From the NCBI GenBank assembly GCA_001778495.1, contig MFHE01000002.1, positions 17,995 through 81,994 on the forward strand: a stretch of 64,000 bases of DNA, read 5' to 3'. Each line of letters begins with the position of its first letter. Position 1 is the first letter of the stretch. The DNA is from Candidatus Giovannonibacteria bacterium RIFCSPHIGHO2_01_FULL_45_24. GTDB lineage: Bacteria > Patescibacteriota > Minisyncoccia > UBA11713 > 2-01-FULL-45-33. A program made the position numbers and the translations under genes. Positions 17,510-56,128 of the stretch are shown here, piece by piece. The notes under the pieces are model-generated. The model was not told the origin of the DNA. It ran no database searches and saw only the letters and a list, made by a program, of their open reading frames with translations.

Positions 17510-17580
17510 TTATAAATGTTATTATATAAGTAATCTTTTGTCAAGTATCTTAAAATGAGGCTAAATCGTAGAATGTGGTA

Positions 17581-18816
17581 ATGCACAAGATTGCGCAAAA
17601 GAGTTGGAGCGAGGGGATTTTTAGGGCGTATGATATTCGGGGAAGATATCCGGAGGAGATTAATGAGGATTCGGCGTATAAAATCGCGCGAGCGTTCGCG
17701 CGGTATTTAAAGCTTAGCAACATGGAAGGAAGAATTCTGAAAGTAGTGATTAGCGCCGACGCGCGCGAATCGTCGCCAGCACTTAAAGAAGCGTTTTTGG
17801 AAGGGCTTTCGGATGAGGGCGCGGAGATTATTGACGCGGGGATTACGACGACGCCGATGCATTATTTTATCGTAAATAAAATGGATGCCGATGGCGGGGC
17901 GATGATTACAGCTTCGCACAATCCACCGGAGTTTAACGGAATCAAACTCTCAAAAAAAGGCGCGGTGTCAATCGGGTCGGGCGCGGGGTTGGAAGAGATC
18001 AAAAATGACGCCATAAGGGGCATTTTTCAGAATTCGGATGGCAAAACCAAGGGTAAAGTAACCAAAAAAGATTTTTTTGGCGAATATATTGAGTTTCTAA
18101 ACGGGTGTTTTCCGCATTTGAAATCTTATATCGCAAAACTTGTTGCGGGGAAGAAAGTCCCCGGTCTGTCTTTTGATTTTGACGGCGACAGGGTTTTGTT
18201 CCGGGACGAAAGCGGGAAGGCGGTTCCAGGCGACATTATTACCGCGCTTCTGGCGCAGAAATACGCCGAGCCGGGCGAAAAAATAGTTTGCGATTTGCGT
18301 TCAAGCCGCGCAGTCAAAGAGGAAGTAGAGGCGAAGGGAGGCGTTGCCATAGAAAGCAGAGTAGGGCATTCGTTTATTAAAGCGCTGATGAAAAAAGAGA
18401 ACGCGGTTTTCGGCGGCGAGCTCTCCGGACATTATTATTTCCGTGATTTTTTTTATTCAGATTCTGGGATTTTTGCCGCTTTGGCAGTATTGGATTTAAT
18501 AAAGACCGCTCAAAAATCTTTAAGCGAGCTTGTAAGGCCGCTGATGCGCCACTTTAAGTCCGAAGAAATAAATTTTGAGGTAAAAGATAAAGAAAAAATA
18601 CTAGACAAAGTCGCGGCATACTTTACGGACCTGCCTGCCGGCAGGCAGGCGCCAAAAATCTCTTATCTGGACGGAATTAAAGTTGAATACCCTGACTGGT
18701 GGTTTAATTTGCGCCCGTCCAATACAGAAGACTTTTTGCGTTTAAATATTGAGGCGTCCACTCCGGAGCTTCTGGAAGAAAAAAGAAGAATTCTCTCTGA
18801 TTTAATAATGAAGTAG
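17581..18816 (+). CDS. phosphomannomutase/phosphoglucomutase family protein
   Basis: Active-site ITASHNPPEFNGIK and metal site FDFDGDR. TAGAAT (17569-17574) is 7 nt before ATG 17581. The track GTG at 17575 is the alternative start. Confidence 0.85.
   Translation: MHKIAQKSWSEGIFRAYDIRGRYPEEINEDSAYKIARAFARYLKLSNMEGRILKVVISADARESSPALKEAFLEGLSDEGAEIIDAGITTTPMHYFIVNKMDADGGAMITASHNPPEFNGIKLSKKGAVSIGSGAGLEEIKNDAIRGIFQNSDGKTKGKVTKKDFFGEYIEFLNGCFPHLKSYIAKLVAGKKVPGLSFDFDGDRVLFRDESGKAVPGDIITALLAQKYAEPGEKIVCDLRSSRAVKEEVEAKGGVAIESRVGHSFIKALMKKENAVFGGELSGHYYFRDFFYSDSGIFAALAVLDLIKTAQKSLSELVRPLMRHFKSEEINFEVKDKEKILDKVAAYFTDLPAGRQAPKISYLDGIKVEYPDWWFNLRPSNTEDFLRLNIEASTPELLEEKRRILSDLIMK
18630..18649. repeat. 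perfect 20-bp palindrome, in frame in the phosphomutase gene
   Basis: CCTGCCTGCC|GGCAGGCAGG encodes LPAGRQA. Confidence 0.8.
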
Positions 18817-25031: not shown

Positions 25032-26315
25032 CTATGTCAACAAGCGCTTTCTGTGTAATTTTCTATAATGCGAAATCGCGAAGCGGTGGGCTTCGGAGTC
25101 CAGCATTAAAATAAAATTTTTGAGCGGTTCGGGGAGGCGCGGAAGGGGGACGGGAGACGTTTTACCATTTATAAAAATATGGTCACCAATATGTTTTTTG
25201 TTTTTGGTGAGAGCGATTATTTTACTTGGCGGTTTAACCGCCAAGGCCGCGCTAAGCTGTGCCCTGCCGCCGTCAACAATAATCACTTGCGGGTAAGGCC
25301 ATTCTTTATGTCTTAGTCGTCTGAAAATAATTTCGCGGAGCATCGCCGGGTCGTTTGAGGTTTTAATACTTCTGATTTTAAACAGCCGATAGCAATTTTT
25401 TTGAATTTTGCCGTCAGCGAAAACGGCCATAGAGCCGTAGGCGAATTGGCCATGAATATTGGCGATGTCGTAGGACTCTATTCTATTTATTGCGGGAATA
25501 TCCAAAATTGATTCCAAGGCCCTGCTGGCCTTGGCGAATTCGGTCGGAAGGTCCTGTTTAATTACTCCCCTGTGTTCAAAGATTTTTTCCAGCGCGCGGA
25601 TTTGGTCGCGGATTTTGCCGGCCTCTTCGTATTTTCTGGCGTCGGAGAGTTCGCGCATTTCTTTTTTGAGCGCGCGGGCAAGAGTTTTATTGTTGCCGGA
25701 GAGTATTTGCTTGATTGCGCGGATGTTTTTTTGGTATTTCCCCAGCGCAGAAAGATCCTGCTCTAAAAGCAGGGCTTTCTGCGCTACGCAACAATAGCCC
25801 AAACATCTCCCAATGCGCGCATTAAGGCACGGCCGCCTGTGAGGTTTTTTGCATGTGCAGTAGGGAAAAGCGCGGCGCAAGGTCTTGAGCGCCGAGCGTA
25901 AAACCCCGCCTTCAGTGAAGGGGCCGATGTAGTCGGCTTCGCGGTTTTTCTGATGCGTGATAAATATCTTTGAAAAATTTTCTTTAGAGAACCCGACATA
26001 AAAATACTGCTTATCGTCGCGCATCAGCACGTTGTATTTCGGCAGGTGTTTTTTAATGAGCCCCGCTTCGCGGATTAAGGCCTCGGTTTCGGAGTTTAAA
26101 ACCTCCCAATCCAATATTTTGGCTTTTTTTAGCAAGGCAATCAACTTGGCGGTTAAACCGCCAAGTGGCGGTTTAACCGCTTTTCCGAAATATGACCTGA
26201 TCCGCGCGCGCAGATTCGCCGCCTTTCCTATATATAGAATCTCCCCACTTTTGTTTCGGAAAAAATAAATCCCGGGCGCATTTGGCGCTTTTTTAAAGTC
26301 CTTTTTGGTGAGCAT
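25032..26315 (-). CDS. uvrC: excinuclease ABC subunit C (short form; I could not find a C-terminal (HhH)2 domain)
   Basis: GIY-YIG N-terminus (GIYFFRNKSGEILYIGKAANLRARIRSYF), a Cys cluster, a UVR domain and an RNase H-like domain. 427 aa. Confidence 0.9.
   Translation of the reverse strand: MLTKKDFKKAPNAPGIYFFRNKSGEILYIGKAANLRARIRSYFGKAVKPPLGGLTAKLIALLKKAKILDWEVLNSETEALIREAGLIKKHLPKYNVLMRDDKQYFYVGFSKENFSKIFITHQKNREADYIGPFTEGGVLRSALKTLRRAFPYCTCKKPHRRPCLNARIGRCLGYCCVAQKALLLEQDLSALGKYQKNIRAIKQILSGNNKTLARALKKEMRELSDARKYEEAGKIRDQIRALEKIFEHRGVIKQDLPTEFAKASRALESILDIPAINRIESYDIANIHGQFAYGSMAVFADGKIQKNCYRLFKIRSIKTSNDPAMLREIIFRRLRHKEWPYPQVIIVDGGRAQLSAALAVKPPSKIIALTKNKKHIGDHIFINGKTSPVPLPRLPEPLKNFILMLDSEAHRFAISHYRKLHRKRLLT
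25225..25245. repeat. REP-2-like palindrome, in frame in uvrC
   Basis: CTTGGCGGT-TTA-ACCGCCAAG. Confidence 0.8.
26145..26180. repeat. REP-2-like palindrome plus overlapping inverted half-copy, in frame in uvrC
   Basis: CTTGGCGGT-TAA-ACCGCCAAG followed by TGGCGGT-TTA-ACCGC. Confidence 0.8.
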
Positions 26316-35944: not shown

Positions 35945-37603
35945 ATGCCCTCTCAAATTGAAGAAATAAAAAGCCGCGTAAATGTCGTGGATTTGGTGGG
36001 CTCGTATGTCCGGCTTGCCAAAGCCGGCGCCAATTTCAGGGCGCTTTGCCCGTTCCACAGCGAGCGGACGCCGTCTTTTAACGTTTCTCCGGCCAGGCAG
36101 ATCTGGCATTGCTTCGGCTGCGGCAAGGGCGGGGACATTTTTGAATTTATCCAGCAGATTGAAGGGGTGGAGTTCGCGGACGCTCTGCGGACTTTGGCCG
36201 ACCGCGCCGGAGTGGAGCTCAAGCACGAAGACCCGCGATTTCGCACGGAGCGCGCGCGGCAGTTCGCGCTTCTGGAAGAAGCCGCGAAATTTTTTGAATC
36301 TAACTTAGCAATCGGATTGCTAAGTCCACTTAGCAATCCGATTGCTAAGTATCTTCATGCGCGTGGCCTGACTGATGACACCATCCGCGAATTCCGCTTG
36401 GGTTACGCGCAGGATGAATGGCGCTCTCTCTCCGCTCATTTAAAAAACAAGGATTTTTCCGCGGCGGAGATAGAAAAATCGGGGCTTGTTGTCAAAAATC
36501 AGCGCGATTTTTACGACCGCTTTCGCGGGCGGATAATGTTCCCGATTTTTGATTACAACGGCAGGGTAGCAGCTTTCGGCGGGAGAATTTTTCCGGAAAA
36601 AGATAACGAGTCAAAATATGTAAATTCGCCGGAAACTATTCTTTACCAAAAAAGCAAAACTTTGTATGCGCTCAACAAATCAAAAACGGAAATTATGCGC
36701 CAAAAAGAGTGCGTTGTGGTTGAGGGCTATATGGATGCGATTATGTCCTGGCAGGGCGGGGTAAAAAATGTCGCGGCATCTTCCGGAACGGCTTTCACTG
36801 AAGACCAGCTAAAGACAATCAAACGGCTTGCCGATAGGATGATTTTCTCTTTTGACGCCGACTCGGCCGGCGAGTCGGCGTCAAAACGCGGCATTGCTTT
36901 GGCCTTGGAGCGCGGATTTGAGGTGAGAGTGGCCGGAGGGTTGGGCGTTAAGGACCCGGCCGAAGCAGTCGCGAAAAATCCGGAGATTTGGCAAAAAGCC
37001 GTTTCCGCTTCGCGCCATATTGTTGAATTTTATCTGGATTCGGCCGTGAAAAAATTCCACCCTGCCTCCCCGGAAGCCAAACGTGAAATTCAAAAAACGG
37101 TTTTGCCGGTGGTTGCGTCCTTGGGCGAGCTTGAGCGCGCGCATTGGGCGAGGGAATTGAGCAATATTTTAAATATAAAAGAAGAAGCCGTCTGGGCGGC
37201 TTTGAAAAAAGCGAATACCGCCCTTTCACAGGAAGGAGAAAATGTTTTCGGAGATGAGCAAGGATCCGCGCGCAATAATAACAGAAAATCATTGCTTGAG
37301 GGCAGGATTTTAGCCATCGCCGCGGAATATCCGGCGCTTTCCCAAAAACTTGACCCGGCCTTTCAAAATCTGCTCGCCCAGAGCAACAAAACAGCCATCT
37401 TCGCGGAAATTTTACTCAACAATCTCGCTGACGCCGAAGTGGAATTCATAAAATGCCAGCGGGAGCTTAAAAAAGAGTATTTAAAAGAGCGTCTGGTTGC
37501 GCTTTCCGGAGAGATAAGCGGCGCGGAGCGCAAAGGCGCGGGAAATCTAAAAACGCTCCTGGGGGAATTTCATAAAATTTCCAAAGAATTAAATCAAATA
37601 TGA
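35945..37603 (+). CDS. dnaG: DNA primase
   Basis: Zn ribbon [30 protein letters not shown] and [14 protein letters not shown]...DADSAG. Confidence 0.95.
36304..36349. repeat. REPIN-like doublet, in frame in dnaG
   Basis: CTTAGCAAT-CGG-ATTGCTAAG, tcca, CTTAGCAAT-CCG-ATTGCTAAG. Confidence 0.95.
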
Positions 37604-40822: not shown

Positions 40823-42025
40823 ATGATTTTTGACCGGCAGCATTTCTATTTTTTCGGTAGCCGCGAGGTGACATCGCTCCATTTTACCCTTGCGCTGCTT
40901 TATTTCGCGGAGGGGCTTATCAGCGTGTTCGTGCCGATTTATTTTTGGAAGCTGGGGATACCGCTTTGGAAAATTTTGTTTTTTTATTTTTTAAACTCGC
41001 TTTATTTTTTGGTTCTGCTTTTCTTGTTTTTGCCGGCGCTTCGCAGATTAAGCGACAAAATGATGATGTTTCTTTCGCTGCCATTTTTGATACTTTATTA
41101 TTTCGGTTTGGGCTTTTTGGGCGATTTCCCGCGCATATTTTATGTCCTGCCCGCGGGGCTCGCGGCAAATATGCTGTTTTTTAACACCGGCTACCACGTT
41201 GATTTTTTGGGCGCTTCCGACAAAGGGCGTTTCGGCCAGGAGATGGGCCTCCGGCACATGCTGGCCTCTTTGGCGCAGTTTTCTTCGCCTTTTTTGGGCG
41301 CCGCGCTGATTGTTTCTTTCGGCTTCGCTTGGACTTTTTACGCCGGGTCGGCATTTTTGTTTTTAGCCGTTTTGCCGCTCTTTTTCTTCCCAAAGAGGAC
41401 GCTTTCGCCGAATCTCACCGCGAGCGCCGTGCTCGGATTTTTAAAAGAAAAAAAGCTCGTTCCGTTTACTTTGTCGGGAGTCGGGATGGCAACGGAAAAA
41501 ATGATCGGGCTTATTTTTTGGCCGCTTTTTATGTACTTCGCGTTCAGCGGCAGCATTGAGAATTTGGGCGGGGTTGTTTCTTTGGGAATTTTGGCGGGGT
41601 CGGTCGCGGCGTATCTTATAGGTTTTGTTTCTGACCACGGCAAAAGGCGGCGGATGCTTTTTTGGTCCGCGATAATATTCGCGGCAATTTGGGCAGACCG
41701 CCCGTTTTTGGAGTCCGCTTACCTTATCGCGGCGAGCAGCGTACTGGGGCACGCGGCTTATTCATCGCTCACGGTTGCCTGGTCCAGCCAGTACTACAAA
41801 ATCGCGGGAGCGGTTTCGGACGCCAGCGCTTTTATTTTGAGCCGCGAAGCGCTTTACCATATTGCCCGGGTGCCGTTTACGGCGGCGCTTGTTTTGGGGG
41901 CTTTTTACGTCCCGCAAGAAAAGCTTTTTGTTATCGGCTTTGTCGCGGCGGCGTGCGCGGCGCTATTTTTCCTTTTTGCCAATCGCATGCCGCACACCAA
42001 CCAGCTTTTTCATGGTGAAAGATAA
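40823..42025 (+). CDS. MFS-like transporter
   Basis: About 12 TM segments in two halves. TGcTATAAT lies 8 nt upstream of the ATG. Confidence 0.5.
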   Translation: MIFDRQHFYFFGSREVTSLHFTLALLYFAEGLISVFVPIYFWKLGIPLWKILFFYFLNSLYFLVLLFLFLPALRRLSDKMMMFLSLPFLILYYFGLGFLGDFPRIFYVLPAGLAANMLFFNTGYHVDFLGASDKGRFGQEMGLRHMLASLAQFSSPFLGAALIVSFGFAWTFYAGSAFLFLAVLPLFFFPKRTLSPNLTASAVLGFLKEKKLVPFTLSGVGMATEKMIGLIFWPLFMYFAFSGSIENLGGVVSLGILAGSVAAYLIGFVSDHGKRRRMLFWSAIIFAAIWADRPFLESAYLIAASSVLGHAAYSSLTVAWSSQYYKIAGAVSDASAFILSREALYHIARVPFTAALVLGAFYVPQEKLFVIGFVAAACAALFFLFANRMPHTNQLFHGER

Positions 42026-42728
42026 AAACGGGAGAATAGTTTTATCGCCGTCCGCCCTCAATCTTTTTTTGGAGTGCGCGAAATGCTTTTGGCTGGAAAA
42101 AAATCGCGGGATCCACCGGCCCTCGGGCGCCTTTCCGTCTTTGCCGGGGGGAATGGACGCTGTGCTCAAAAAATATTTTGACAAGTTTCGCGCGCAAGGC
42201 ACACTCCCGCCGGAGATTGAGGGAAAAGTAGAAGGTAAGCTTTTAGACGACCCGAGATTTTTGCGCGAGTGGCGGCTCAATATGAAAGGAATCAGATGGC
42301 GCGACGAAAAATTGGACGCGGAGCTGATGGGCGCTTTAGATGACTGCTTGGTTTCTAATAATTCTTACATCCCCGTTGATTATAAAACTAGAGGCTGGGC
42401 GGCGAAAGATGATTCACATTCTTATTATGTGAACCAATTAAATTGCTACACATTTTTGCTGCAAAAAAACGGATACAAAACTAAAAATTTCGCTTACTTG
42501 CTTTTTTATTCGCCTGAAGAGGTTTTGGACTTGGACGCCGGACGTCCAAGCGGACGTCCGGCGTCCTTAGTCGCATTCAACGTTGAGCCGCGCAAGGTTG
42601 AAGTGGAACCCGAAGCCGCCTACAAAGTTTTCAAATCTGCCGTCCAGCTTTTGCGCGGCCCCAAGCCCGCTTCGCACAGCGACTGCAAGTTTTGCAGCTG
42701 GGGAAACAATTTCTTGACTTTTGAATAA
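42012..42728 (+). CDS. PD-(D/E)XK (Cas4/RecB-like) nuclease family protein
   Basis: N-terminal SPSALNLFLECAKCFW, core IPVDYKT, C-terminal CKFCSW cysteines. The track start at 41862 is rejected because it overlaps the MFS gene. Confidence 0.65.
   Translation: MVKDKNGRIVLSPSALNLFLECAKCFWLEKNRGIHRPSGAFPSLPGGMDAVLKKYFDKFRAQGTLPPEIEGKVEGKLLDDPRFLREWRLNMKGIRWRDEKLDAELMGALDDCLVSNNSYIPVDYKTRGWAAKDDSHSYYVNQLNCYTFLLQKNGYKTKNFAYLLFYSPEEVLDLDAGRPSGRPASLVAFNVEPRKVEVEPEAAYKVFKSAVQLLRGPKPASHSDCKFCSWGNNFLTFE
42530..42566. repeat. REP-2-like double hairpin, in frame in the nuclease gene
   Basis: GGACGCCGGACGTCC-aagc-GGACGTCCGGCGTCC (15-bp arms). The first half reads CTTGGACG-ccgga-CGTCCAAG. Confidence 0.9.
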
Positions 42729-44507: not shown

Positions 44508-45648
44508 ACTGACATTCGGCCGCCACAACGCGACTTTCGCGGTGCTTGGGGTGGCGCTTGTGGCGACGGCATCGTGGTCTTTCGTGAAAACTTACGGGGC
44601 GGGAGACGGGGGCGCGTTTCAGACGACTCCGGCTGTCATTTCCGAACCCGAAAAGCCAAAACACATAAAAACCCCTGAACCGGTGAAGGCGATTTATATG
44701 ACCAGCTGGGTTGCCGGCACGAAAGATTGGCGTAGAGAACTGGTTGAGTTCGTTAAAAAATCCGAAATCAATAGCATTGTCATTGACGTAAAAGATTACA
44801 CTGGCAGAGTTTCTTTTAACACAGGGAATCAGAAAGTAAAAGAATTCGGTTCGGAGGAAATGCGCGTGGGAGACATGAAAGATTTTATTGAAACGCTACA
44901 CGACGCCGGCATCTACGCCATTGCCCGCATTGCCGTGTTTCAGGACCCGTTTTACGCAAAAAAACATCCGGAGATCGCCGTGCAGAAAAAAAATGGAGCG
45001 GTATGGAAAGACAAAAAGGGGCTTTCATATCTAGACCCGGGCGCGCGCGAATTTTGGGACTATATAATAGAAGTCGCCAAAGCGTCGGAGGCAGCCGGGT
45101 TTGACGAGCTGAATTTTGACTATATCCGCTATCCATCGGACGGCAATATGTCCGACATAATGTTTCCGGTATCAGGCAAAAGAAATAAAGTTGAAGTCAT
45201 GTCAGAATTTTTTGCCTATTTAAGTAATGCGCTAAGCGATCTGCCAGTCCCAATCTCTGCGGATGTTTTCGGAATGGTTGCCACCAATCCCGACGATTTG
45301 AACATCGGGCAGGTTTTGGAAAGCATCGCCCCGCATTTTGATTATGTTTCTCCAATGGTTTATCCGTCGCACTACCCGCCGGGATTTCAAAATTATAAAA
45401 ATCCCGCGGCGCATCCTTACGAGGTAGTGCGTTTTTCAATGAACAAGGCGGTGGAACGACTTTCAGCGCCGACTTCAACTCCTTCCAAACTCCGCCCTTG
45501 GATTCAGGATTTTGATTTGGGAGCAAATTACGATGCCTCGAAAGTCCGTGCGCAGATTCAGGCGGTTTACGACTCCGGCCTTACGTCTTGGATGAGCTGG
45601 GATGCCGGGAATAAATACACAAGGGATGCTTACACCTCTGATCCTTGA
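44482..45648 (+). CDS. putative glycoside-hydrolase-like TIM-barrel protein (DUF4015-like)
   Basis: N-terminal anchor, then VKAIYMTSWVAG...INSIVIDVKDYTG...DELNFDYIRYP pattern. Confidence 0.55.
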   Translation: MKRQKYFHKLTFGRHNATFAVLGVALVATASWSFVKTYGAGDGGAFQTTPAVISEPEKPKHIKTPEPVKAIYMTSWVAGTKDWRRELVEFVKKSEINSIVIDVKDYTGRVSFNTGNQKVKEFGSEEMRVGDMKDFIETLHDAGIYAIARIAVFQDPFYAKKHPEIAVQKKNGAVWKDKKGLSYLDPGAREFWDYIIEVAKASEAAGFDELNFDYIRYPSDGNMSDIMFPVSGKRNKVEVMSEFFAYLSNALSDLPVPISADVFGMVATNPDDLNIGQVLESIAPHFDYVSPMVYPSHYPPGFQNYKNPAAHPYEVVRFSMNKAVERLSAPTSTPSKLRPWIQDFDLGANYDASKVRAQIQAVYDSGLTSWMSWDAGNKYTRDAYTSDP

Positions 45649-46372
45649 CCCAAATCCGATTTAGGGCAATCATATAATAATCATAGCATTGATATATGCG
45701 AAAAAACCCTTTTATCACTGGCAGTTTTTATCATGTTTACGCGCACACAATAAGTGATTTAGCGCTTTTTCGTAACGAGTGGGACTATAAAAGATTTTTA
45801 TGCACGTTTTTCGCTGCTAATGGAGATGGCGCTGTTCTTCGTTTGGATCGCCAGAATGACCTAAATCCGATTTGGGGCATACGGGATGGGACAGTAGATA
45901 TCGGAAAGCCGCTTGTAGATATAGTTTGTTTTTGTCTCATGAACACCCATTTCCACTTGCTTTTGGGAGAGCGTGGAGATGGAAATATTTCTAAATTTAT
46001 GCAAAAGCTTATGATCAGCTATGCCAAATATCTAAATCTAAAGTACGAACGCCGAGGGCACGTGTTTGAAAGCAGATTTCATTCCAAGCTTTTGGATGAT
46101 AATGAATATTTTTTGCGGGCTTCGTGCTATATTCACTTGAATCCAAAAGATGCACGCGGATGGAAAAATATTGAGTATAAATATCCTTGGTCAAGCTACC
46201 AAGACTACCTCGGCGATTCTCGCTGGGGCAGACTTTTGAAAGACGAGACTATACTTTCACAATTTAAAACCAAACTGGCGTATAGGGAATTTGTGAGAGA
46301 AGCGCGCCCGGAATTATCCGATTATGCAGAGCATGTTGTTTTTCTAAACTGACCCAAATCGGATTTGGGGCA
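45646..46372 (+). mobile_element. RAYT-1 unit: Y1/HUH transposase gene bracketed by 23-nt REP-1 hairpin copies
   Basis: TGACCCAAATC(C/G)GATTT(A/G)GGGCA at 45646-45668 and 46350-46372. A third copy lies at 45857-45879 inside the ORF. Confidence 0.75.
45696..46352 (+). CDS. REP-associated tyrosine transposase-like protein (IS200/Y1_Tnp family)
   Basis: FYHVY..., HUH motif in CLMNTHFHLLL, C-terminal Tyr motif ASCYIHLNP. Confidence 0.8.
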   Translation: MRKNPFITGSFYHVYAHTISDLALFRNEWDYKRFLCTFFAANGDGAVLRLDRQNDLNPIWGIRDGTVDIGKPLVDIVCFCLMNTHFHLLLGERGDGNISKFMQKLMISYAKYLNLKYERRGHVFESRFHSKLLDDNEYFLRASCYIHLNPKDARGWKNIEYKYPWSSYQDYLGDSRWGRLLKDETILSQFKTKLAYREFVREARPELSDYAEHVVFLN

Positions 46373-47563: not shown

Positions 47564-49915
47564 ATGAAGTTTTTAGCCAAGCCGCTTTTAGCTTTTGCTT
47601 TTCTCTTTCTTTTTGCCGCGCCCGCCTTTGCCGGCCCCAACGATAATCTCTCCGGCGGGGCATGGGCCGATAATATCGGCGCGATCAGTTTTAATTCCAC
47701 AAATCATGATGGCGACGTAGATTACGGCGTTAGCGTTGATCAAGCTGGAAATCTCTCCGGAGAAGCATGGTCCGACAATGCAGGATGGATAAGTTTTAAC
47801 GCAGGGGACGTTGCGGGGTGTCCGCAGGACCCGCCGGCGGTTCCGTGCGCGCCGAAATTGAATCGCGAAACGGGAGTTGTTTCCGGTTGGGCAAGGGCTT
47901 ATCGCGCCATAGAGCCGGAAGGTCAGACACTCGGCGGCTGGGATGGATGGATTCATCTTAGGGGAAAGGTCCAAAGCGATAATTCAGATTTTGGTGTTTT
48001 GGCAAGCGGCTGTGATTGGGGCGGGCTTGCCTGGGGCGGCACTGATTATAGTCTGGGTTTTACCGGCTGGGTTCAATTTGACGCCGAAGGCACCGGCTTT
48101 GCCTGCGTTGAAGTTGTTCAACCCGGACTGCGCGTCGTTCCACATTCCGCCGATCTTGAAGTCGGAGGGCAAATGCCTTTCCAAGCTCTTTACGACCCGG
48201 ATGGTTCCAGCCCACAGCCGGAAACAGACGTTACTGAATCGGCTTCCTGGTCTTCTTCAGGCCCCGCAGTAGCCGTCGTAACAAATATTTCTCCCAAGGG
48301 CATAGTAACGGGTGTATCGCCCGGGGATGCCAATATCACCGCGACTTATCTCGGAACAAACGACTCGGCTTTGGTTAATGTTACTCAATCACCGCCATCT
48401 GTTCCCAAATGCGAACCAACTTCTCAATCAGGGAAAGTCGGCGATCCATTCGGTTTCACCGCCAAGGACGGCTCATCTCCATACAGCTGGTCCGCTCCTT
48501 CGGGGACTCCATCTTCCGGCGCGGGATCTTCTTTCATCACAAGATACTCTTCCCCCGGCAACTACGTTGTTACTCTCACTGACTCCGCAAGTAGGTCCGA
48601 CACTTGCTCCGTGAGCGCAGAGAGGGTTGAGGACCCTGAAAACCGCGTTCCGGTTGCCGAAGCCGGCATTTCAACGGACGGCTCAACTTACTCAAGCAAA
48701 ATCATTGTTACAAAAGGGGTCCCGACCAGAATTTACTTTTCTGCCGATGAAGATGTAACCGGAGATGGAGCCGCGAGCCGCGACCCGGACGGCTGGACTC
48801 ACCCGACTCTGGGAGTTTCCAACGGAGGAAGTTGCGCGTGGAACGCCGACCTCAATCAAGGAACTCCGACTTTTGAAAAAACTTTTGGCAGTCCGCCATC
48901 GCCGTCCGGCTGCAATTTCAATCAAGAATACACTTTTAACGATGACCTTGAGGGGCAGCAATCCAAAACCTTCACTTACGAGGTGCTTAAAATCACAGAC
49001 GCAAGAGGGGCGGTTTCAAACATAGGATTCGTGCAAGTGGAGGTGAGAGCCGAGGGCGGATTTACCTGCAACTCATTGAAGCAGTGCGTCTTTGGCGGCG
49101 GGGGAGAAAGTTGTAGGATTACTCCGGAGTGCGAAAGCGTTATTGTAGACCCGCCTGTCTGCACAAGCAACTGCGGAGGAGGCGGAGGAGGCGGAGGAGG
49201 CTGCACTGATCCGGTAACATGCCCTGTTGTTACAGATCCCAACGCTTTAGAGCTTGGCTCCGACACCAGTTTTTTCTGCCCGTCTCATCAGGTTGAACTT
49301 AAATGGAATTACTCCGATCCAAACGGCGACCAGCAAGCGTCTTTTAGATTACAGGTTGATAACAATTCAGATTTTTCATCAATGATTGTTGACGTTTACC
49401 AAGACTCTTCAAATAAACTTTTTATTGTCCCGCCGAATGTGCTTTCTTTCAGCACAACGTATTATTTCAGAGTCGCGGTAAAAGATTCAACCGGCGCGTG
49501 GTCAAACTGGTCTTCTTCCGCCAATTTCACGACGCCGGCAAGTTGTCCTCCGGCGGCGAGCTTTAAACTCCGCAGAACGAAAGACATCTCTGTGAATGTC
49601 ACTGGCGTAGGCGCTGGAACAAGCGATTCAACGACGATTTGGGTTGAGAAGATCGGAGCGTTTTCCGGCACGGTAATACTCGTTCCGCAATCCATCTCGC
49701 CGAATATTCCCGGCGCGTCTTTCAGTTTCGCAACCGCTTCGCTGGATCAAGATCATTATTCGTCCGGTTTTAGCTTCAAGGTCACGGTTCCGGGGTCTAC
49801 CGCGCCTGGCAATTACACTATTAAAATTAAAGGGACGAGCGGCGGCGTGCCGGACGCTTTTGTTGACGTCCTGCTTAGAGTAAATTTTACCAGCCCGGAT
49901 TTTAGGGAAATATAA
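47564..49915 (+). CDS. large secreted multi-domain surface protein (module 1, gene c)
   Basis: Signal peptide MKFLAKPLLAFAFLFLFAAPAFA. Repeated G.AW...GWISFN motifs, a Big_2-like segment and many Cys pairs. The C-terminal domain is shared with 52021-53265. Confidence 0.75.
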   Translation: MKFLAKPLLAFAFLFLFAAPAFAGPNDNLSGGAWADNIGAISFNSTNHDGDVDYGVSVDQAGNLSGEAWSDNAGWISFNAGDVAGCPQDPPAVPCAPKLNRETGVVSGWARAYRAIEPEGQTLGGWDGWIHLRGKVQSDNSDFGVLASGCDWGGLAWGGTDYSLGFTGWVQFDAEGTGFACVEVVQPGLRVVPHSADLEVGGQMPFQALYDPDGSSPQPETDVTESASWSSSGPAVAVVTNISPKGIVTGVSPGDANITATYLGTNDSALVNVTQSPPSVPKCEPTSQSGKVGDPFGFTAKDGSSPYSWSAPSGTPSSGAGSSFITRYSSPGNYVVTLTDSASRSDTCSVSAERVEDPENRVPVAEAGISTDGSTYSSKIIVTKGVPTRIYFSADEDVTGDGAASRDPDGWTHPTLGVSNGGSCAWNADLNQGTPTFEKTFGSPPSPSGCNFNQEYTFNDDLEGQQSKTFTYEVLKITDARGAVSNIGFVQVEVRAEGGFTCNSLKQCVFGGGGESCRITPECESVIVDPPVCTSNCGGGGGGGGGCTDPVTCPVVTDPNALELGSDTSFFCPSHQVELKWNYSDPNGDQQASFRLQVDNNSDFSSMIVDVYQDSSNKLFIVPPNVLSFSTTYYFRVAVKDSTGAWSNWSSSANFTTPASCPPAASFKLRRTKDISVNVTGVGAGTSDSTTIWVEKIGAFSGTVILVPQSISPNIPGASFSFATASLDQDHYSSGFSFKVTVPGSTAPGNYTIKIKGTSGGVPDAFVDVLLRVNFTSPDFREI
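49175..49201 (+). repeat. tandem (GGAGGAGGC)x3 encoding Gly9 between two Cys codons
   Basis: A perfect 9-nt unit repeated three times, in frame. Confidence 0.9.
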
Positions 49916-50261: not shown

Positions 50262-51937
50262 TGAATCTTATGAAGAACCAAACTAACAATTTATTAAAAG
50301 ATGTGGCTAAAGTGGCGGTTTTCGGAGTTGCGTTTTTGGTGTTGCAGGCGCTTGCGTTTACAGAGCCCTCGCAATCTCCTCCCTGGGGCAATACTCCTGC
50401 TCCGTTAAATGTTTCCGGCTCAACGCAAGCTAAAAGCGGAGAGCTTCAGATTCCAATTCTCCGCGACTACAACAATCCCGGCTATTACGTTGACCCCGAT
50501 GCCAATTCGTGGCTCTACCGGCTTTATTCTTTTGAATTAAGATCGGAGGATAAAATCTGTTTTAAAGGGGACTGCAGGACATCATGGCCCTCCAGCGGTA
50601 CCGACAGCCAAACCCTTTCCATCAGTGGGCAAACTCTTTCTATTTCCGGCGGAAATAGCGTCGCTTTGCCGGCGGGGGGAGATATTACCGCGGTTAATGC
50701 GGGAGCTGGTCTTTCTGGGGGAGGAGCTTCCGGCGATGTCGCGCTTTTCGCAGACACCGGCTATCTGCAAAGAAGAATAAGTGACACGTGCGGCGCCGGT
50801 TCGTCCATTCGGGCAATAAATTCTGACGGCTCTGTTGTTTGCGAAGCGGATGACGCCGGTACTGGAGGTATTGGAGCAGAATCCGACACTTTACAAAGCG
50901 TAACCGACCGCGGCAATTCAACCTCTCAAAATTTGACCTCTCCGATAGTCTATGACTACAACAATGCTGGCTACTACGTTGACCCCGCAGCCAACTCGTG
51001 GCTTTACAGATTATATTCTTACGAACTTTGTCTTCGCAACGATTGCGTCACTTCTTGGCCTCCCGGTCCGCCGGGACCGCAAGGTCCGGCAGGCCCGACT
51101 GGACCCACTGGCGCAACCGGAGCAACGGGAGCTGCCGGACCACAGGGCCTCAAAGGGGATACTGGAGCAGCTGGTTCAAAAGGCGACACAGGGGCGACTG
51201 GCACGACGGGCCTCCAAGGTCCGCAAGGTCCTGCAGGACCAGCTGGCGACATTACGGGTTCAAATCCCAACTGGTTGCGCGCTCTTTGGCTGGAGGCGAC
51301 CAATTATCTTAAGGCTCCGATTCTTTACGATCGCGACAATGAGGGATATTATGTTGATCCCGCTTCCAACTCAATATTTTTTAGGTTATATTCCTATGAT
51401 TTAAAGTCGCTAGACCGGATTTGCCTTCGCGGCGATTGCCGCACCTCGTGGCCATCCGGCGGCGGCTCTGACAGCCAGACGCTTTCCATAAGCGGTCACA
51501 CTTTATCTATTTTCGGCGGCAACAGCGTCTCATTACCCGATAATGACAGCCAGACTTTATCTCTAAGCGGCCAGACGCTTTCCATCTCCGGCGGCAACAG
51601 CGTTAGTTTGCCATCCGGCGGCGGCTCTGACAGTCAGACGCTTTCTTTTAATCCAGATACCTATAATCTTAATATTTCTGGCGGAAACAGCGTGACATTG
51701 CCCGGGCAAAAAGTTTGCATCGGTTATCATACCGAAGGAGATAATTGGCACGACATTTTGCAAGTGCCGACTGGCTGGACGATATCAACATGCCGCAACG
51801 GGTTAAAAACATTCAGTAGTTCCATAAAGAAGTTTATGTTGGGGTGCATTTTTACAAATTCCTTCTCAAAATCGCCGGGCGACTTTGTGGGCATTAACAA
51901 TAATCCAAGTTTGCCTTCACCAAATTGCGGCTGGTAA
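50261..51937 (+). CDS. secreted collagen-like fibre protein (module 2, gene b)
   Basis: Signal ...LQALA|FTEPS and [20 protein letters not shown]. 20 G-X-Y triplets (about 51065-51247). Repeated [14 protein letters not shown] and [19 protein letters not shown] units. Confidence 0.8.
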
Positions 51938-52020: not shown

Positions 52021-53265
52021 ATGGTTAAAAATTTCAGAGTTGGCGCGGTTTTGGCGACTTTGGTTTTCGGGGCGGCTTTTTATTTTCTTCCGACTTTTCA
52101 CTCTCCAGAAGTCCAAGCGGGCTCCGAGCATAATCTTTCCGGGTGGGCGTGGTCGGAAAATATCGGCTGGATAAGTTTTAACTCAACCAATCAGGGTGGT
52201 GGGGCGAACTACGGCGTGACGGTTGACAGTGGCGGCAATCTTTCCGGCTACGCCTGGTCGGAAAACATCGGCTGGATTGATTTTAATGAGAATACCGGAT
52301 GCCCATCTTCTCCCTGCCGGCCGAAACTGAACCGTTCCAGCGGGCAAGTTTCCGGATGGGTTAAGGCCTTGGCGGCGGGCGGCAGCGGTTGGGACGGCTG
52401 GATTCGCCTTCGTGGATCTAATTACGGAGTTGGTGTTAACGGCTGTGACTGGGATGGGTATGCTTGGGGGTCTGATGTTGTGGGATGGATTCATTTTAAG
52501 GGATCAAATTACGGCGTTTCGGGAACTGGATCCGGCTGCGGCGTTCAGCCCGATTTGCTCGTTTCAAGCGGCCCGCTGCTTAATTTCGGCGTTTTGGTCG
52601 GAGGGACGACGGTCAATTTCAAGGGCACCGTGCGCAATCAGGGCGACGCAGAAGCCGTAGGCGCTTTTTCTAATCGCTTTCAGGTTGACATTGATAATAA
52701 CGGCTCGGTTGATTTAACGCTTACTCCAAATCCAACATTGAGCGGCCTCGCCGCCGGAAGATTTTCTGAAGTGGTTTCCGGAAACTGGAGCAATATCCCC
52801 GTCGGCACGCACCGCGTTGTTCTTTGCGCCGACCAGCCCGGCCCGACTATTGCCGAATCCAACGAAAATAACAACTGCTCGGAAAGCTTATTCACCGTCT
52901 CCGTGCCGGAGTTTTACCTATTAAGCTCAAACGAGCTTGATATTGATGTCACCGGCGTGGGAGATTCTTCAAGCGGCACTACCAAAATAACCGTGATTCC
53001 GGTCGGAGCTTTTACCGATGACGTCGCATTGTCTGTACAGTCCGTTTCGCCGTCTTTGCCTGCTGGGACAATTTATAATTTCGTGCCGCAAACCCTGAAG
53101 AAAAATCAGTATTCTTCCGGTTCAAATTTTAAAGTGACGGTTCCCGGAGACACCGCGGAGGACGAGTATATTATTACCATTGTAGGCCAAAGCCCTGGAC
53201 TCAACCGGACAATCAATGTTACACTTCATGTTAATTTAAAGATTCCGGAATTTAAAGAAATTTAA
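52021..53265 (+). CDS. secreted surface protein, paralogue of 47564-49915 (module 2, gene c)
   Basis: Same N-terminal GWAWSENIGWISFN repeat domain and same C-terminal domain, ending PEFKEI versus PDFREI. Confidence 0.75.
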   Translation: MVKNFRVGAVLATLVFGAAFYFLPTFHSPEVQAGSEHNLSGWAWSENIGWISFNSTNQGGGANYGVTVDSGGNLSGYAWSENIGWIDFNENTGCPSSPCRPKLNRSSGQVSGWVKALAAGGSGWDGWIRLRGSNYGVGVNGCDWDGYAWGSDVVGWIHFKGSNYGVSGTGSGCGVQPDLLVSSGPLLNFGVLVGGTTVNFKGTVRNQGDAEAVGAFSNRFQVDIDNNGSVDLTLTPNPTLSGLAAGRFSEVVSGNWSNIPVGTHRVVLCADQPGPTIAESNENNNCSESLFTVSVPEFYLLSSNELDIDVTGVGDSSSGTTKITVIPVGAFTDDVALSVQSVSPSLPAGTIYNFVPQTLKKNQYSSGSNFKVTVPGDTAEDEYIITIVGQSPGLNRTINVTLHVNLKIPEFKEI

Positions 53266-53266
53266 C

Positions 53267-53950
53267 ATGGATCAAAAATTTTTAATTCCGTCTTCTATTA
53301 TTTTGGCTGGTGTAGTAATTGCCTTGGCGGTTTTGTATAGCAAAATCCCGTCCGCGCCCTCCTCAACATCCGATGTTAAATCTGCAAAAACATCGGATGT
53401 TTTCCCGGGCGCGGAAGCTCTACGTATCCGCCGAGACGATTTTGTTTTGGGAAGTCCCGCCGCGAAAGTCGCCATTATTGAATATGGAGATTTTCAGTGC
53501 CCGTTTTGCGGAAGATTTTTTCAAACTACCGAAAAGGAGATTATAGAAAAGTACGTGAAGACCGGCAAAGCCGCGTTTTTGTGGCGCGACTTCGCGTTTT
53601 TGGGAGAAGAGTCTTTCCGCGCCGCCGAGGCGGCGCGTTGCGCCGGAGAGCAGGGGAAGTTTTGGGAATATCACGACTATCTTTTTAATGGTCAGCGGGG
53701 GGAAAATGAGGGCGCGTTTTCCGACCAAAATTTGAAACGTTTCGCGAAAGAGCTGAAACTGGACGAATCTAAATTTAATTCCTGTTTTGATTCCGGAAAA
53801 TACAGAAAAGCGGTTGAGGAAACGTCAAATACGGGGAGAGCGGTTGGGGTGAACGGCACCCCGGCCACTTTCGTAAACGGGCAGTTAATTTCCGGAGCGC
53901 AGCCGTTTGCCGTGTTTCAGAAAATTATAGATGAAGAGCTCAAAAAATAA
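53267..53950 (+). CDS. DsbA-family thiol:disulfide oxidoreductase (membrane-anchored)
   Basis: Thioredoxin-fold CPFC active site and an N-terminal TM segment. Confidence 0.85.
   Translation: MDQKFLIPSSIILAGVVIALAVLYSKIPSAPSSTSDVKSAKTSDVFPGAEALRIRRDDFVLGSPAAKVAIIEYGDFQCPFCGRFFQTTEKEIIEKYVKTGKAAFLWRDFAFLGEESFRAAEAARCAGEQGKFWEYHDYLFNGQRGENEGAFSDQNLKRFAKELKLDESKFNSCFDSGKYRKAVEETSNTGRAVGVNGTPATFVNGQLISGAQPFAVFQKIIDEELKK
53360..53407 (+). repeat. 48-bp double-hairpin element, copy B, in frame in the DsbA-like gene
   Basis: 46/48 identical to 1371-1418. Encodes SSTSDVKSAKTSDVFP. Confidence 0.9.
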
Positions 53951-55416: not shown

Positions 55417-55420
55417 TTCC

Positions 55421-56128
55421 CACTTGGCTGTCCGACAGCCAAGTGTTATATTTTATTTATGAGAAAAACTCGTTTTGGTAACGGAGAATTTTATCATATT
55501 TATAATCGCGGTACCGATAAGCGTCGGGTATTTTTAGACCAAGAAGATTTTAAGCGTTTTTTGCAGAGCATGAACGAATTTAACAGCCAAATACCTATCG
55601 GCAGTTTATTTGAGAACTCTTTTAGGGGCGAAACTAAACTTGGCAGTCGGACTGTTAAGTTGGTTGATATCGTTTGCTATTGTCTTAATCCTAACCACTA
55701 TCATTTAATGCTTCGTCAGCGCATTGAAAATGGAGTTAGTGAGTTTATGAAACGATTGAGTGGTGGTTATACTCAATATTTCAATATTAAATATAAAAGA
55801 AGCGGCGTGCTTTTTCAAGGTAAATTTAAGGCGACGCACATAGATTCTAATGAATATCTTTTACATGCCAGCGCATATGTTAATTTGAATAACCGCGTTC
55901 ATCATATTAATGACAGATCATCACGATCAAGTTGGGGAGAATGTCTCGATGACAATAGCGGTATGTGCGCTAAAGATATTATATTGAAGCAATTTAAGAA
56001 GCCCGTCGAGTATAAAGAATTTGCTGAAAGTTCGCTAAGAGATATTTTAGAGCGGAAACAACTGCATAAAGAACTGGAAAAAATATTACTAGAAAATTAG
56101 CCACTTAGCTGTCGGACAGCTAAGTGGC
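55421..56128 (+). mobile_element. RAYT-2 unit: Y1/HUH transposase gene bracketed by REP-2 hairpins
   Basis: CACTTGGCTGT-CCG-ACAGCCAAGTG (55421-55445) and CCACTTAGCTGT-CGG-ACAGCTAAGTGG (56101-56127). Internal copy at 55638-55660. Confidence 0.8.
55459..56100 (+). CDS. REP-associated tyrosine transposase-like protein (IS200/Y1_Tnp family)
   Basis: FYHIYNRG..., HUH motif in CLNPNHYHLML, Tyr motif ASAYVNLN. TGtTATATT ends 7 nt before the ATG. Confidence 0.8.
   Translation: MRKTRFGNGEFYHIYNRGTDKRRVFLDQEDFKRFLQSMNEFNSQIPIGSLFENSFRGETKLGSRTVKLVDIVCYCLNPNHYHLMLRQRIENGVSEFMKRLSGGYTQYFNIKYKRSGVLFQGKFKATHIDSNEYLLHASAYVNLNNRVHHINDRSSRSSWGECLDDNSGMCAKDIILKQFKKPVEYKEFAESSLRDILERKQLHKELEKILLEN

Follow-up and report, generated by a model that had tools for sequence, protein, structure and literature searches.

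The window analysed here is a stretch of 64,000 nucleotides (nt) from Candidatus Giovannonibacteria bacterium RIFCSPHIGHO2_01_FULL_45_24, an ultra-small member of the Patescibacteria (assembly GCA_001778495.1, contig MFHE01000002.1, positions 17,995 to 81,994 of the forward strand). Its essential dnaG gene for DNA primase, an open reading frame (ORF) of 552 amino acids (aa) at 35945-37603 on the forward strand, probably carries as in-frame coding sequence a doublet of repetitive extragenic palindromic (REP) elements of the RAYT (REP-associated tyrosine transposase) family, in an arrangement like that of a REPIN (REP doublet forming a hairpin). The doublet (36303-36350, forward strand) is 48 nt or 16 codons long and forms a perfect 23+2+23 palindrome. 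Each of its units, neither of which was given a strand, is itself a perfect 11+1+11 palindrome of 23 nt: unit 1 (36303-36325) reads ACTTAGCAATCGGATTGCTAAGT, or ACTTAGCAATC-G-GATTGCTAAGT, and unit 2 (36328-36350) reads ACTTAGCAATCCGATTGCTAAGT, or ACTTAGCAATC-C-GATTGCTAAGT. The units are exact reverse complements (100%), are separated by CC, and differ only in the central base, G versus C. A sequence-only reading of the window had described two 21-nt palindromes in frame in dnaG, CTTAGCAATCGGATTGCTAAG (36304-36324) and CTTAGCAATCCGATTGCTAAG (36329-36349), separated by TCCA. Both are present exactly as given and lie in frame in the ORF, but the symmetry extends one base further on each side and the spacer is CC. 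The two REPs form an inverted REPIN pair that makes one long hairpin, and RNA of the 48-nt doublet has a folding energy of -38.5 kcal/mol (z = -8.4). Unit 1 codes for (N)LAIGLLS, its 5' arm overlapping the conserved N-L-A codons of DnaG, and unit 2 for (P)LSNPIAK(Y); the entire 14-residue DnaG linker of the window is REP sequence.

Palindromes are a known source of assembly errors, and we considered whether the doublet might be due to chance or to misassembly, for example of a chimeric fold-back read. No protein identical to the window DnaG was found in the protein collection (best match, 84%), though the RAYT locus of the same strain, described below, was present. However, when the window was subjected to 100 dinucleotide-preserving shuffles, the doublet motif was matched 0 times with up to three mismatches allowed. 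The reading frame is unbroken, and the conserved motifs around the doublet and the conserved domains downstream of it are intact. Analogous in-frame doublets or singlets occur at the same codon position in independent assemblies (L097, L100, L099 and L110). An artefact or chance origin is thus extremely improbable. Perfect hairpins with stems of at least 9 bp numbered 18 in the window, against 1.35 in shuffles, and those centred on TCSGA 15, against 0.46.

The units conform to the family consensus (C)ACTTRGC-NNT-CSG-ANN-GCYAAGT(G). Species-representative genomes were scanned with the pattern ACTTRGCNNTCSGANNGCYAAGT, in which complementarity of the arms was not demanded. The scan returned 88 loci, nearly all from Patescibacteria, including Giovannoni-, Zambryski-, Ryan-, Azam-, Taylor- and Yanofskybacteria, Paceibacterota, and contigs labelled Saccharibacteria. 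Perfect palindromes made up 93 of the 107 matches, where chance would give 1 in 32. Stem sequences are of several discrete, covarying types (AAT/ATT, TGT/ACA, GGT/ACC, GCT/AGC and others), and the dominant variant differs by genome: GGCGGT in 8 of 8 copies in UBA6033, and GGCAAT in 8 of 10 in SMAG_U8106. The exact dnaG 23-mer, which has the AAT stem, was found 14 times in the genome scan and 44 times on 38 metagenome contigs. The window holds two exact copies, both in dnaG, and four strict family matches, and other metagenome-assembled genomes have at least 8-10 strict copies each. The outer arms and centre of the dnaG units recur in the window at 55421-55445 (CACTTGGCTGTCCGACAGCCAAGTG), at 56100-56128, and in degenerate form at 55638-55660. 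The similarity of the arms to the copy at 56100-56128, termed REP-2 in the sequence-only reading, was borne out: this copy reads GCCACTTAGCTGTCGGACAGCTAAGTGGC and, like the dnaG units, has the arms ACTTAGC/GCTAAGT and the centre TCSGA. Judged from these matches, the doublet is a member of a dispersed palindrome family. A scan of viral contigs gave one imperfect match, and an Rfam scan of the whole window found three tRNAs only and nothing at the palindromes. One contig labelled Planctomycetes (MHYA01000143) has the same REP and flanks, in reverse complement, as a Giovannonibacteria contig (the L080/L083 pair), and is probably mis-binned.

Three of these copies belong to a second locus, which contains a RAYT-like Y1/HUH transposase gene, here called RAYT-A (55459-56100, forward strand, 213 aa). 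One REP lies 5' of the gene (55421-55445, no strand assigned; CACTTGGCTGTC-C-GACAGCCAAGTG), starting 5 nt past the stop codon of the upstream gene, and one lies 3' of it (56100-56128, no strand assigned; GCCACTTAGCTGTC-G-GACAGCTAAGTGGC). A degenerate in-frame REP inside the gene (55638-55660, forward strand; ACTTGGCAGTCGGACTGTTAAGT) codes for KLGSRTVKL. Homologous transposases have REP-coded peptides at the position of this copy, and in the transposase genes such peptides are found at two fixed positions. The protein has the HUH motif NPNHYHLML and the tyrosine motif SAYVNLNN, and scores 32.3 bits with the Pfam family Y1_Tnp (PF01797; cutoff, 23); H80, H82, Y140 and N144 are invariant among its homologues. 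A sequence search of the PDB gave no match for RAYT-A, and a profile of 17 homologues gave a marginal match to ISDra2 (E = 0.19). The AlphaFold model (pLDDT 77.6, pTM 0.75) had as its best Foldseek match in the PDB the E. coli RAYT-REP complex, 4ER8 (E = 2.9e-4, probability 1.0), followed by the ISDra2 and IS608 TnpA proteins. By sequence motifs and predicted fold, ORF 55459-56100 has a Y1/HUH domain with the HUH motif and the catalytic tyrosine. More than 3,000 homologues are in the databases, some of them named RayT by the Joint Genome Institute.

An independent assembly of the same strain contains the RAYT-A locus with identical REP flanks, and several of the palindrome loci from the genome scan aligned to window positions 55419-56127. 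RAYT-A homologues stood beside or between palindromes in 19 of the 88 seeded 8-kb loci, which is far above expectation for a low-copy gene. In L067, L116 and L129, RAYT-A homologues are flanked by the exact dnaG-type REP; in L127, L105 and L139, this REP is next to them. The RAYT gene and the REPs of the same family that flank it constitute a REP/RAYT architecture. (The occurrence of inverted pairs after genes had prompted the idea of a DNA-uptake-sequence-like motif, but the transposase association fits the data better.)

Additional transposase genes were observed. A second RAYT-like Y1 transposase in the window (45696-46352) is 34% identical to RAYT-A, has the motifs HFH and YIHLNP, and is associated with palindromes of its own family (TGACCYAAATCSGATTTRGGGCA), two flanking the gene (45646-45668 and 46350-46372) and one in frame inside it (45857-45879). 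CP066687, the genome of the closest relative at dnaG, has at least three transposase paralogues that are 62-73% identical to RAYT-A. A RAYT homologue is located directly upstream of dnaG at L094:9216-9941, flanked by the variant ACTTGGGAAC-YSR-GTTCCCAAGT and with an internal copy; the dnaG linker in L094 is short.

The dnaG ORF was identified by its match to the Aquifex primase (PDB 2AU3, E = 4e-60). Its homologues contain the Pfam domains Zn_ribbon_DnaG, DNAG_N and Toprim, and the named organisms among the closest are Candidatus Giovannonibacteria. By alignment with 2AU3, the zinc-binding domain comprises residues 4-93 and the RNA-polymerase domain starts near residue 108, while the doublet encodes residues from about 120 to 136. 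The AlphaFold 2 model of DnaG (pLDDT 78) has a helix at residues 97-125, a loop at 126-131 and a helix at 132-139, and the pLDDT dips to 75 at the segment, compared to 93 and 86 on either side. The model thus puts the doublet where the RNA-polymerase domain starts, just past the zinc-binding domain, at a predicted helix-loop-helix junction. Where a surface loop had been anticipated, a loop is predicted for residues 126-131, but residues 122-125 form the end of one helix, and the next starts at residue 132. Relative to the window, the segment is 6 residues shorter in Aquifex, 4 in E. coli and 3 in Pseudomonas. The E. coli segment is unrelated, as had been suggested, and the comparison of lengths is roughly right.

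We aligned 120 DnaG homologues and obtained the DNA for ten. The stretch between the FFExNL and YLxxRGL motifs is hypervariable in this set. Short linkers of 6 residues are present in L093, L094 and L095 (e.g., aat tta aac ggc gaa ccg tta aag tat) and in orthologues P0002-5. In L099, an in-frame REP singlet of the same length as the short linker occupies the site (aac tta gcg gtc gga ccg cta aat tat), and L098 has a degenerate in-frame singlet. L097 carries a REP doublet with another stem variant (ACTTGGCAATCGGATTGCC/ACTTGGCAATCCGATTGCCAAGT, perfect 20+2+20), L100 a second doublet of that variant, and L096 (P0006) a 1.5-unit TTWAA-centred element identical to window positions 26144-26180. A metagenomic dnaG, L110, has an exact AAT REP singlet in the second register, and its upstream part corresponds to the window doublet minus 24 nt. 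Relative to the orthologue singlets, the window doublet equals an in-frame singlet plus the 24 nt CCACTTAGCAATCCGATTGCTAAG (36326-36349). The closest relative, L001 (CP066687), has a DnaG that is 84-89% identical to that of the window at the aa level, and flanks of the site that are about 90% identical at the nt level; in it, the site is occupied by an unrelated 129-nt imperfect hairpin (L001:10357-10485; arms ACGGGCGCGCAAGTTGCGGATGAAATTTC and GAAATTTCAGACGCAATTTCGCGCCCG). The same type of insert is found in P0020 (59% identical).

These occupancy states are interleaved on a rough neighbour-joining tree of DnaG, and decaying copies could be recognized in P0013, P0019, P0028 and P0040. P0004 and P0006 (87% identical) differ by clean +7-aa and +10-aa indels at two dnaG hot spots. 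Because the orthologues differ at the site, the segment is not a native conserved peptide, and the DnaG homologues compared do not all share its peptide without palindromic DNA. On the evidence of the alignments, the dnaG site is repeatedly remodelled by palindromic elements. Presence, absence and replacement were all seen, with one clean +7-aa indel at this site; the window form is not a simple insertion into a native linker.

Other features of the same gene were noted. Between the window (36299-36361) and L001 (10355-10492) there is a non-alignable patch in which the YLHA and YLKS codons are also swapped, which hints at cassette exchange by recombination. The second hot spot, the site of the clean +10-aa indel between P0004 and P0006, follows the GGRI(F/L) motif in L001 and L096, and its equivalent in the window is at about 36585-36610. 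In several dnaG orthologues, a 30-nt two-hairpin element, EVPTPERVGTPTESVG, replaces PEKxNE; it is absent from the window. Finally, a perfect 16-bp inverted repeat, TTTTGACGCCGACTCG gccgg CGAGTCGGCGTCAAAA, lies within the conserved Toprim motif of the window dnaG (36850-36886). In L001, 12 of the 16 positions pair, and each of the four differences, of which three are synonymous and one changes Ala to Ser, favours symmetry in the window, which suggests a palindrome-perfecting mutational process.

REPs of this family are also found in frame in other genes. Copies were counted as deep in an ORF if they were at least 40 codons from both ends of a long stop-to-stop ORF, which is a measure of position and not a gene prediction. 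By this measure, 42 of 112 strict family matches and 15 of 44 exact AAT matches were deep in long ORFs, while about 60-65% of family copies were outside long ORFs. Inside long ORFs, only two stop-free frames are used, giving peptides of the types xLAIGLLS and xLSNPIAKx. Hosts confirmed by Pfam include LeuRS (three genomes, in two of which the REP has the same site), UvrA (two genomes, with doublets at a shared site), TsaD (two genomes), ArgRS (three contigs), UvrD, DprA, an IleRS-like synthetase, an RsmI-like methylase and a ROK kinase. Within the window, uvrC (25032-26315, minus strand; Pfam GIY-YIG, UVR and UvrC RNase H domains) contains two related, TTWAA-centred palindromes in frame on the minus strand: one of 1.5 units at 26144-26180 (ACTTGGCGGTTAAACCGCCAAGTGGCGGTTTAACCGC, coding for AVKPPLGGLTAK), and a second unit at 25225-25245, coding for LAVKPPS. 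These uvrC palindromes echo published REP insertions in excision-repair genes.

Could the dnaG doublet have arisen in situ, as a local mutational product, without a transposase? Template switching by fold-back or quasi-palindrome correction could have copied the native N-L-A codons (AACTTAGCA) in inverted orientation, followed by duplication of the result. Such an origin would account for the left arm being made of conserved native DnaG codons, for the frequent 1.5-unit partial forms, for the replacement seen between filled and empty dnaG sites, and for the symmetry of many copies that reaches into non-conserved flanks (e.g., in L039, L033, L080 and L083); the Toprim repeat, perfected in the window relative to its closest relative, also fits. 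However, the identical 23-mer is present at dozens of unrelated genome and metagenome loci, including both flanks of transposase genes, and genome-specific stem variants across loci are not expected from independent local events. A wholly local origin is therefore unlikely. Since template switching could keep the arms perfect, it may be a contributor rather than a true alternative.

We also considered that the hairpin or the peptide had been selected at the dnaG site for a function, beyond mere tolerance: as an mRNA structure throttling DnaG translation in the dnaG-rpoD operon, as a DNA- or protein-binding site, or as a linker extension. In favour of this, many deep lineages have retained REP-type sequence at the same codon position, with compensatory changes in the stem; the stability of the RNA hairpin is very high; and NPIAKYL, coded by the REP, looks like the native helix start P-x-A-R/K-x-YL in the DnaG of E. 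coli, Mycobacterium and Pseudomonas. Nevertheless, the element is missing from close relatives, or its place is taken by unrelated sequence, and nothing else has changed in compensation. Decay is visible in many of the copies at the site, and the same element is found in many unrelated genes and in intergenic DNA. An intrinsic terminator was ruled out for the dnaG copy, which is in mid-gene and is not followed by a T-run. (Some intergenic family copies, such as that in L039, have A/T-run flanks.) Selection for a specific function is thus very unlikely.

The REPIN-like reading, in which the doublet would be comparable to the palindromic elements of Rickettsia, is supported by the palindrome family, the RAYT association, and the patchy distribution among orthologues. 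A RAYT-type Y1/HUH single-strand DNA transposase would maintain and spread a Patescibacteria-wide REP family. Action on hairpins in single-stranded DNA has been established for IS200/IS605 elements and the E. coli RAYT (Ton-Hoang/Messing 2012, PDB 4ER8, PMC3479197), and by analogy the Y1 transposase may act on hairpins here, spreading or replacing copies and moving or homogenising them. At the length-variable dnaG site, different palindromic elements would repeatedly have been gained, expanded, replaced or lost by decay, and the window form could have arisen from an in-frame REP singlet by addition of a second, inverted 24-nt unit of 8 codons. In essential genes, selection would retain only in-frame, stop-free events. 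Three properties would account for the survival of the doublet: two frames on each strand are free of stop codons in this family, the number of added nucleotides is divisible by three, and the coded peptide falls in a permissive junction. The segment is presumably translated and near-neutral for primase function.

Several observations weigh against this reading. RAYT-A scores only 24.1 bits against the NCBIfam model REP_Tyr_transpos (NF047646), its only match in NCBIfam, where the cutoff is 80. The REPs flanking RAYT-A have the TGT stem rather than the AAT stem of dnaG, so that the pairing of this enzyme with the dnaG copies is a predicted one, and within the 64-kb window the exact AAT-stem 23-mer is found solely in dnaG. 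The GTAG/CGTC tag of classical REPs is not present in any variant of the family, although ACTT/AAGT may be its equivalent. The "inverted" orientation of the doublet units depends on a single central nucleotide; the centres were opposite in six of the eight doublets seen, and the central base showed no consistent orientation with respect to the transposase gene (6 C versus 4 G). At dnaG, REP singlets (6 aa) give linkers no longer than the "empty" ones, and between the filled L096 and the empty L094 one sequence has been substituted for another (9 nt versus 30 nt), which is no clean insertion. No clean insertion footprint was definable between filled and empty dnaG sites. Thus, simple cut-and-paste insertion does not explain the dnaG site. 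The replacement sites, the singlets of equal length, the absence of polarity, and the copies with their own variants described below indicate that conversion-like overwriting or template switching would be a contributing process.

Orthologous in-frame REPs carry the variant of their own genome in UvrA (nzgw457 versus nzgw461), LeuRS (L010 versus L030) and TsaD, in the transposase genes, and in dnaG (the window versus L097 and L100). The UvrA doublets at L012:6919-6966 and L071:1848-1898 have the stems TAGCGG and TGGCGG, respectively, and the LeuRS singlets at L010:6054 and L030:486 code for RLSGRTAKS and RLGNPIAKS. These sequences suggest concerted evolution or repeated re-insertion at fixed coding sites. 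Together with the REP singlets that take the place of a linker at unchanged length, and with the swapped cassettes of 63 nt in the window and 138 nt in its closest relative at the dnaG site, they raise the tentative possibility, which we regard as somewhat doubtful, that the REP population of Patescibacteria actively overwrites and homogenises short coding stretches at fixed positions in essential genes. If this were true, transposase- or hairpin-templated gene conversion would act continuously on protein-coding DNA, and the sites would be rapidly evolving "REP-encoded" protein modules.

The window contains further palindromes in coding sequence. A 49-nt REPIN-like doublet, AACATCCGATGTT ... 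AAAAACATCGGATGTTTT, is found at 1370-1418 and 53359-53407 (96% identical), in both cases in frame and just past an N-terminal hydrophobic segment, in ORFs 1245-1916 (SSTSDVESPKTSDVFP) and 53240-53950 (SSTSDVKSAKTSDVFP). An in-frame palindrome of other sequence, GGACGCCGGACGTCC aagc GGACGTCCGGCGTCC, at 42533-42566 codes for DAGRPSGRPAS in ORF 41841-42728, and another, CCTGCCTGCCGGCAGGCAGG, at 18630-18649 codes for LPAGRQA in ORF 17572-18816. The coding repeats in the large downstream ORFs (47645-47799, 52132-52286 and 50452-51645) are unrelated to the palindromes and consist of NLSGxAWSxNIGWISFN repeats, collagen-like GPxG runs, and 85-nt repeats.

REP/REPIN-RAYT systems, reportedly described by Nunvar in 2010, resemble the system described here in several respects. 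Both have short palindromes, often just 3' of genes and probably dispersed over the genome here too, that occur as singlets and as inverted doublets folding as one hairpin; both have genome-specific "master" variants, a Y1/HUH gene flanked by repeats, and more than one transposase/REP pair per genome (two in this window, each with its own REP family). Here, however, the hosts are Patescibacteria, the 23-mers are perfectly symmetric with polarity reduced to one central base, the GTAG/CGTC tag is missing, the doublet spacer is 2 nt instead of tens of nt, the transposase is too divergent for the NCBIfam RAYT model, and about a third of the copies are in frame in genes. Such systems are well described in Proteobacteria (Bertels & Rainey 2011, PMC3116915; PMC3337134; PMC5581495). 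In classical REPs, the tetranucleotide GTAG (or CGTC) is conserved at the foot of the hairpin (Di Nocera 2013, PMC3733652; Quentin 2018). In-frame REPs in replication and repair genes were already reported in 2013, for GTAG- and CGTC-tagged families and for the Rickettsia elements RPE-4 and RPE-6, and were argued to sit in flexible linkers or loops; apart from R. conorii and O. terrae, only a small fraction of the repeats was intragenic (Di Nocera et al. 2013, PMC3733652). Primase is not among the intragenic examples of that study (PMC3733652). The hosts found here are of a similar kind (dnaG, uvrA, uvrC, uvrD and aminoacyl-tRNA synthetases), whereas the published REPs were tagged and came from Proteobacteria, Verrucomicrobia and Rickettsia. 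The literature searched showed no link of RAYT, REPIN or palindromic repeats with Patescibacteria or the Candidate Phyla Radiation. While the phenomenon itself is known, the novelty lies in the phylum, in how densely core genes are populated by in-frame copies, and in signs that the same sites are homogenised.

The Rickettsia palindromic elements (RPE), reportedly described by Ogata et al. in 2000 and 2002 and by Claverie & Ogata in 2003, likewise are palindromes carried in frame by essential protein genes in a bacterium with a reduced genome, where surface or linker regions tolerate them. RPE-1 has a length of about 100-150 bp, codes for 30-50 aa and is specific to Rickettsia, and it is not known to have a dedicated transposase. 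The elements described here are built of 23-nt units (8 aa) in a 48-nt doublet, have an associated Y1 transposase, and reside in Candidatus Giovannonibacteria. The dnaG doublet is thus an analogue of the RPEs and not a member of them. With the IS200/IS605 elements (IS608, ISDra2), the system shares the Y1/HUH TnpA fold and, by analogy, would share the recognition of subterminal DNA hairpins and single-strand transposition. It differs from them in having divergent transposase paralogues (34% identical in the window, 62-73% in CP066687) and apparently not identical multi-copy insertion sequences, in having hairpins that vastly outnumber the transposase genes, and in that no tnpB was seen beside them.

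The finding adds the Candidate Phyla Radiation to the groups with a REP/RAYT-type system; none was found described there in the searchable literature. In these genomes of 0.6-1 Mb, which have little intergenic space, a large share of the repeats is in frame in core genes for primase, excision-repair proteins and aminoacyl-tRNA synthetases. REP elements may break metagenome assemblies at such sites, and are a source of spurious low-complexity motifs in alignments. These elements would explain length-variable "linker" segments in proteins of Patescibacteria, and, in parallel to Rickettsia, they provide a second reduced-genome lineage in which to study how proteins absorb palindromic DNA and how REPs persist.

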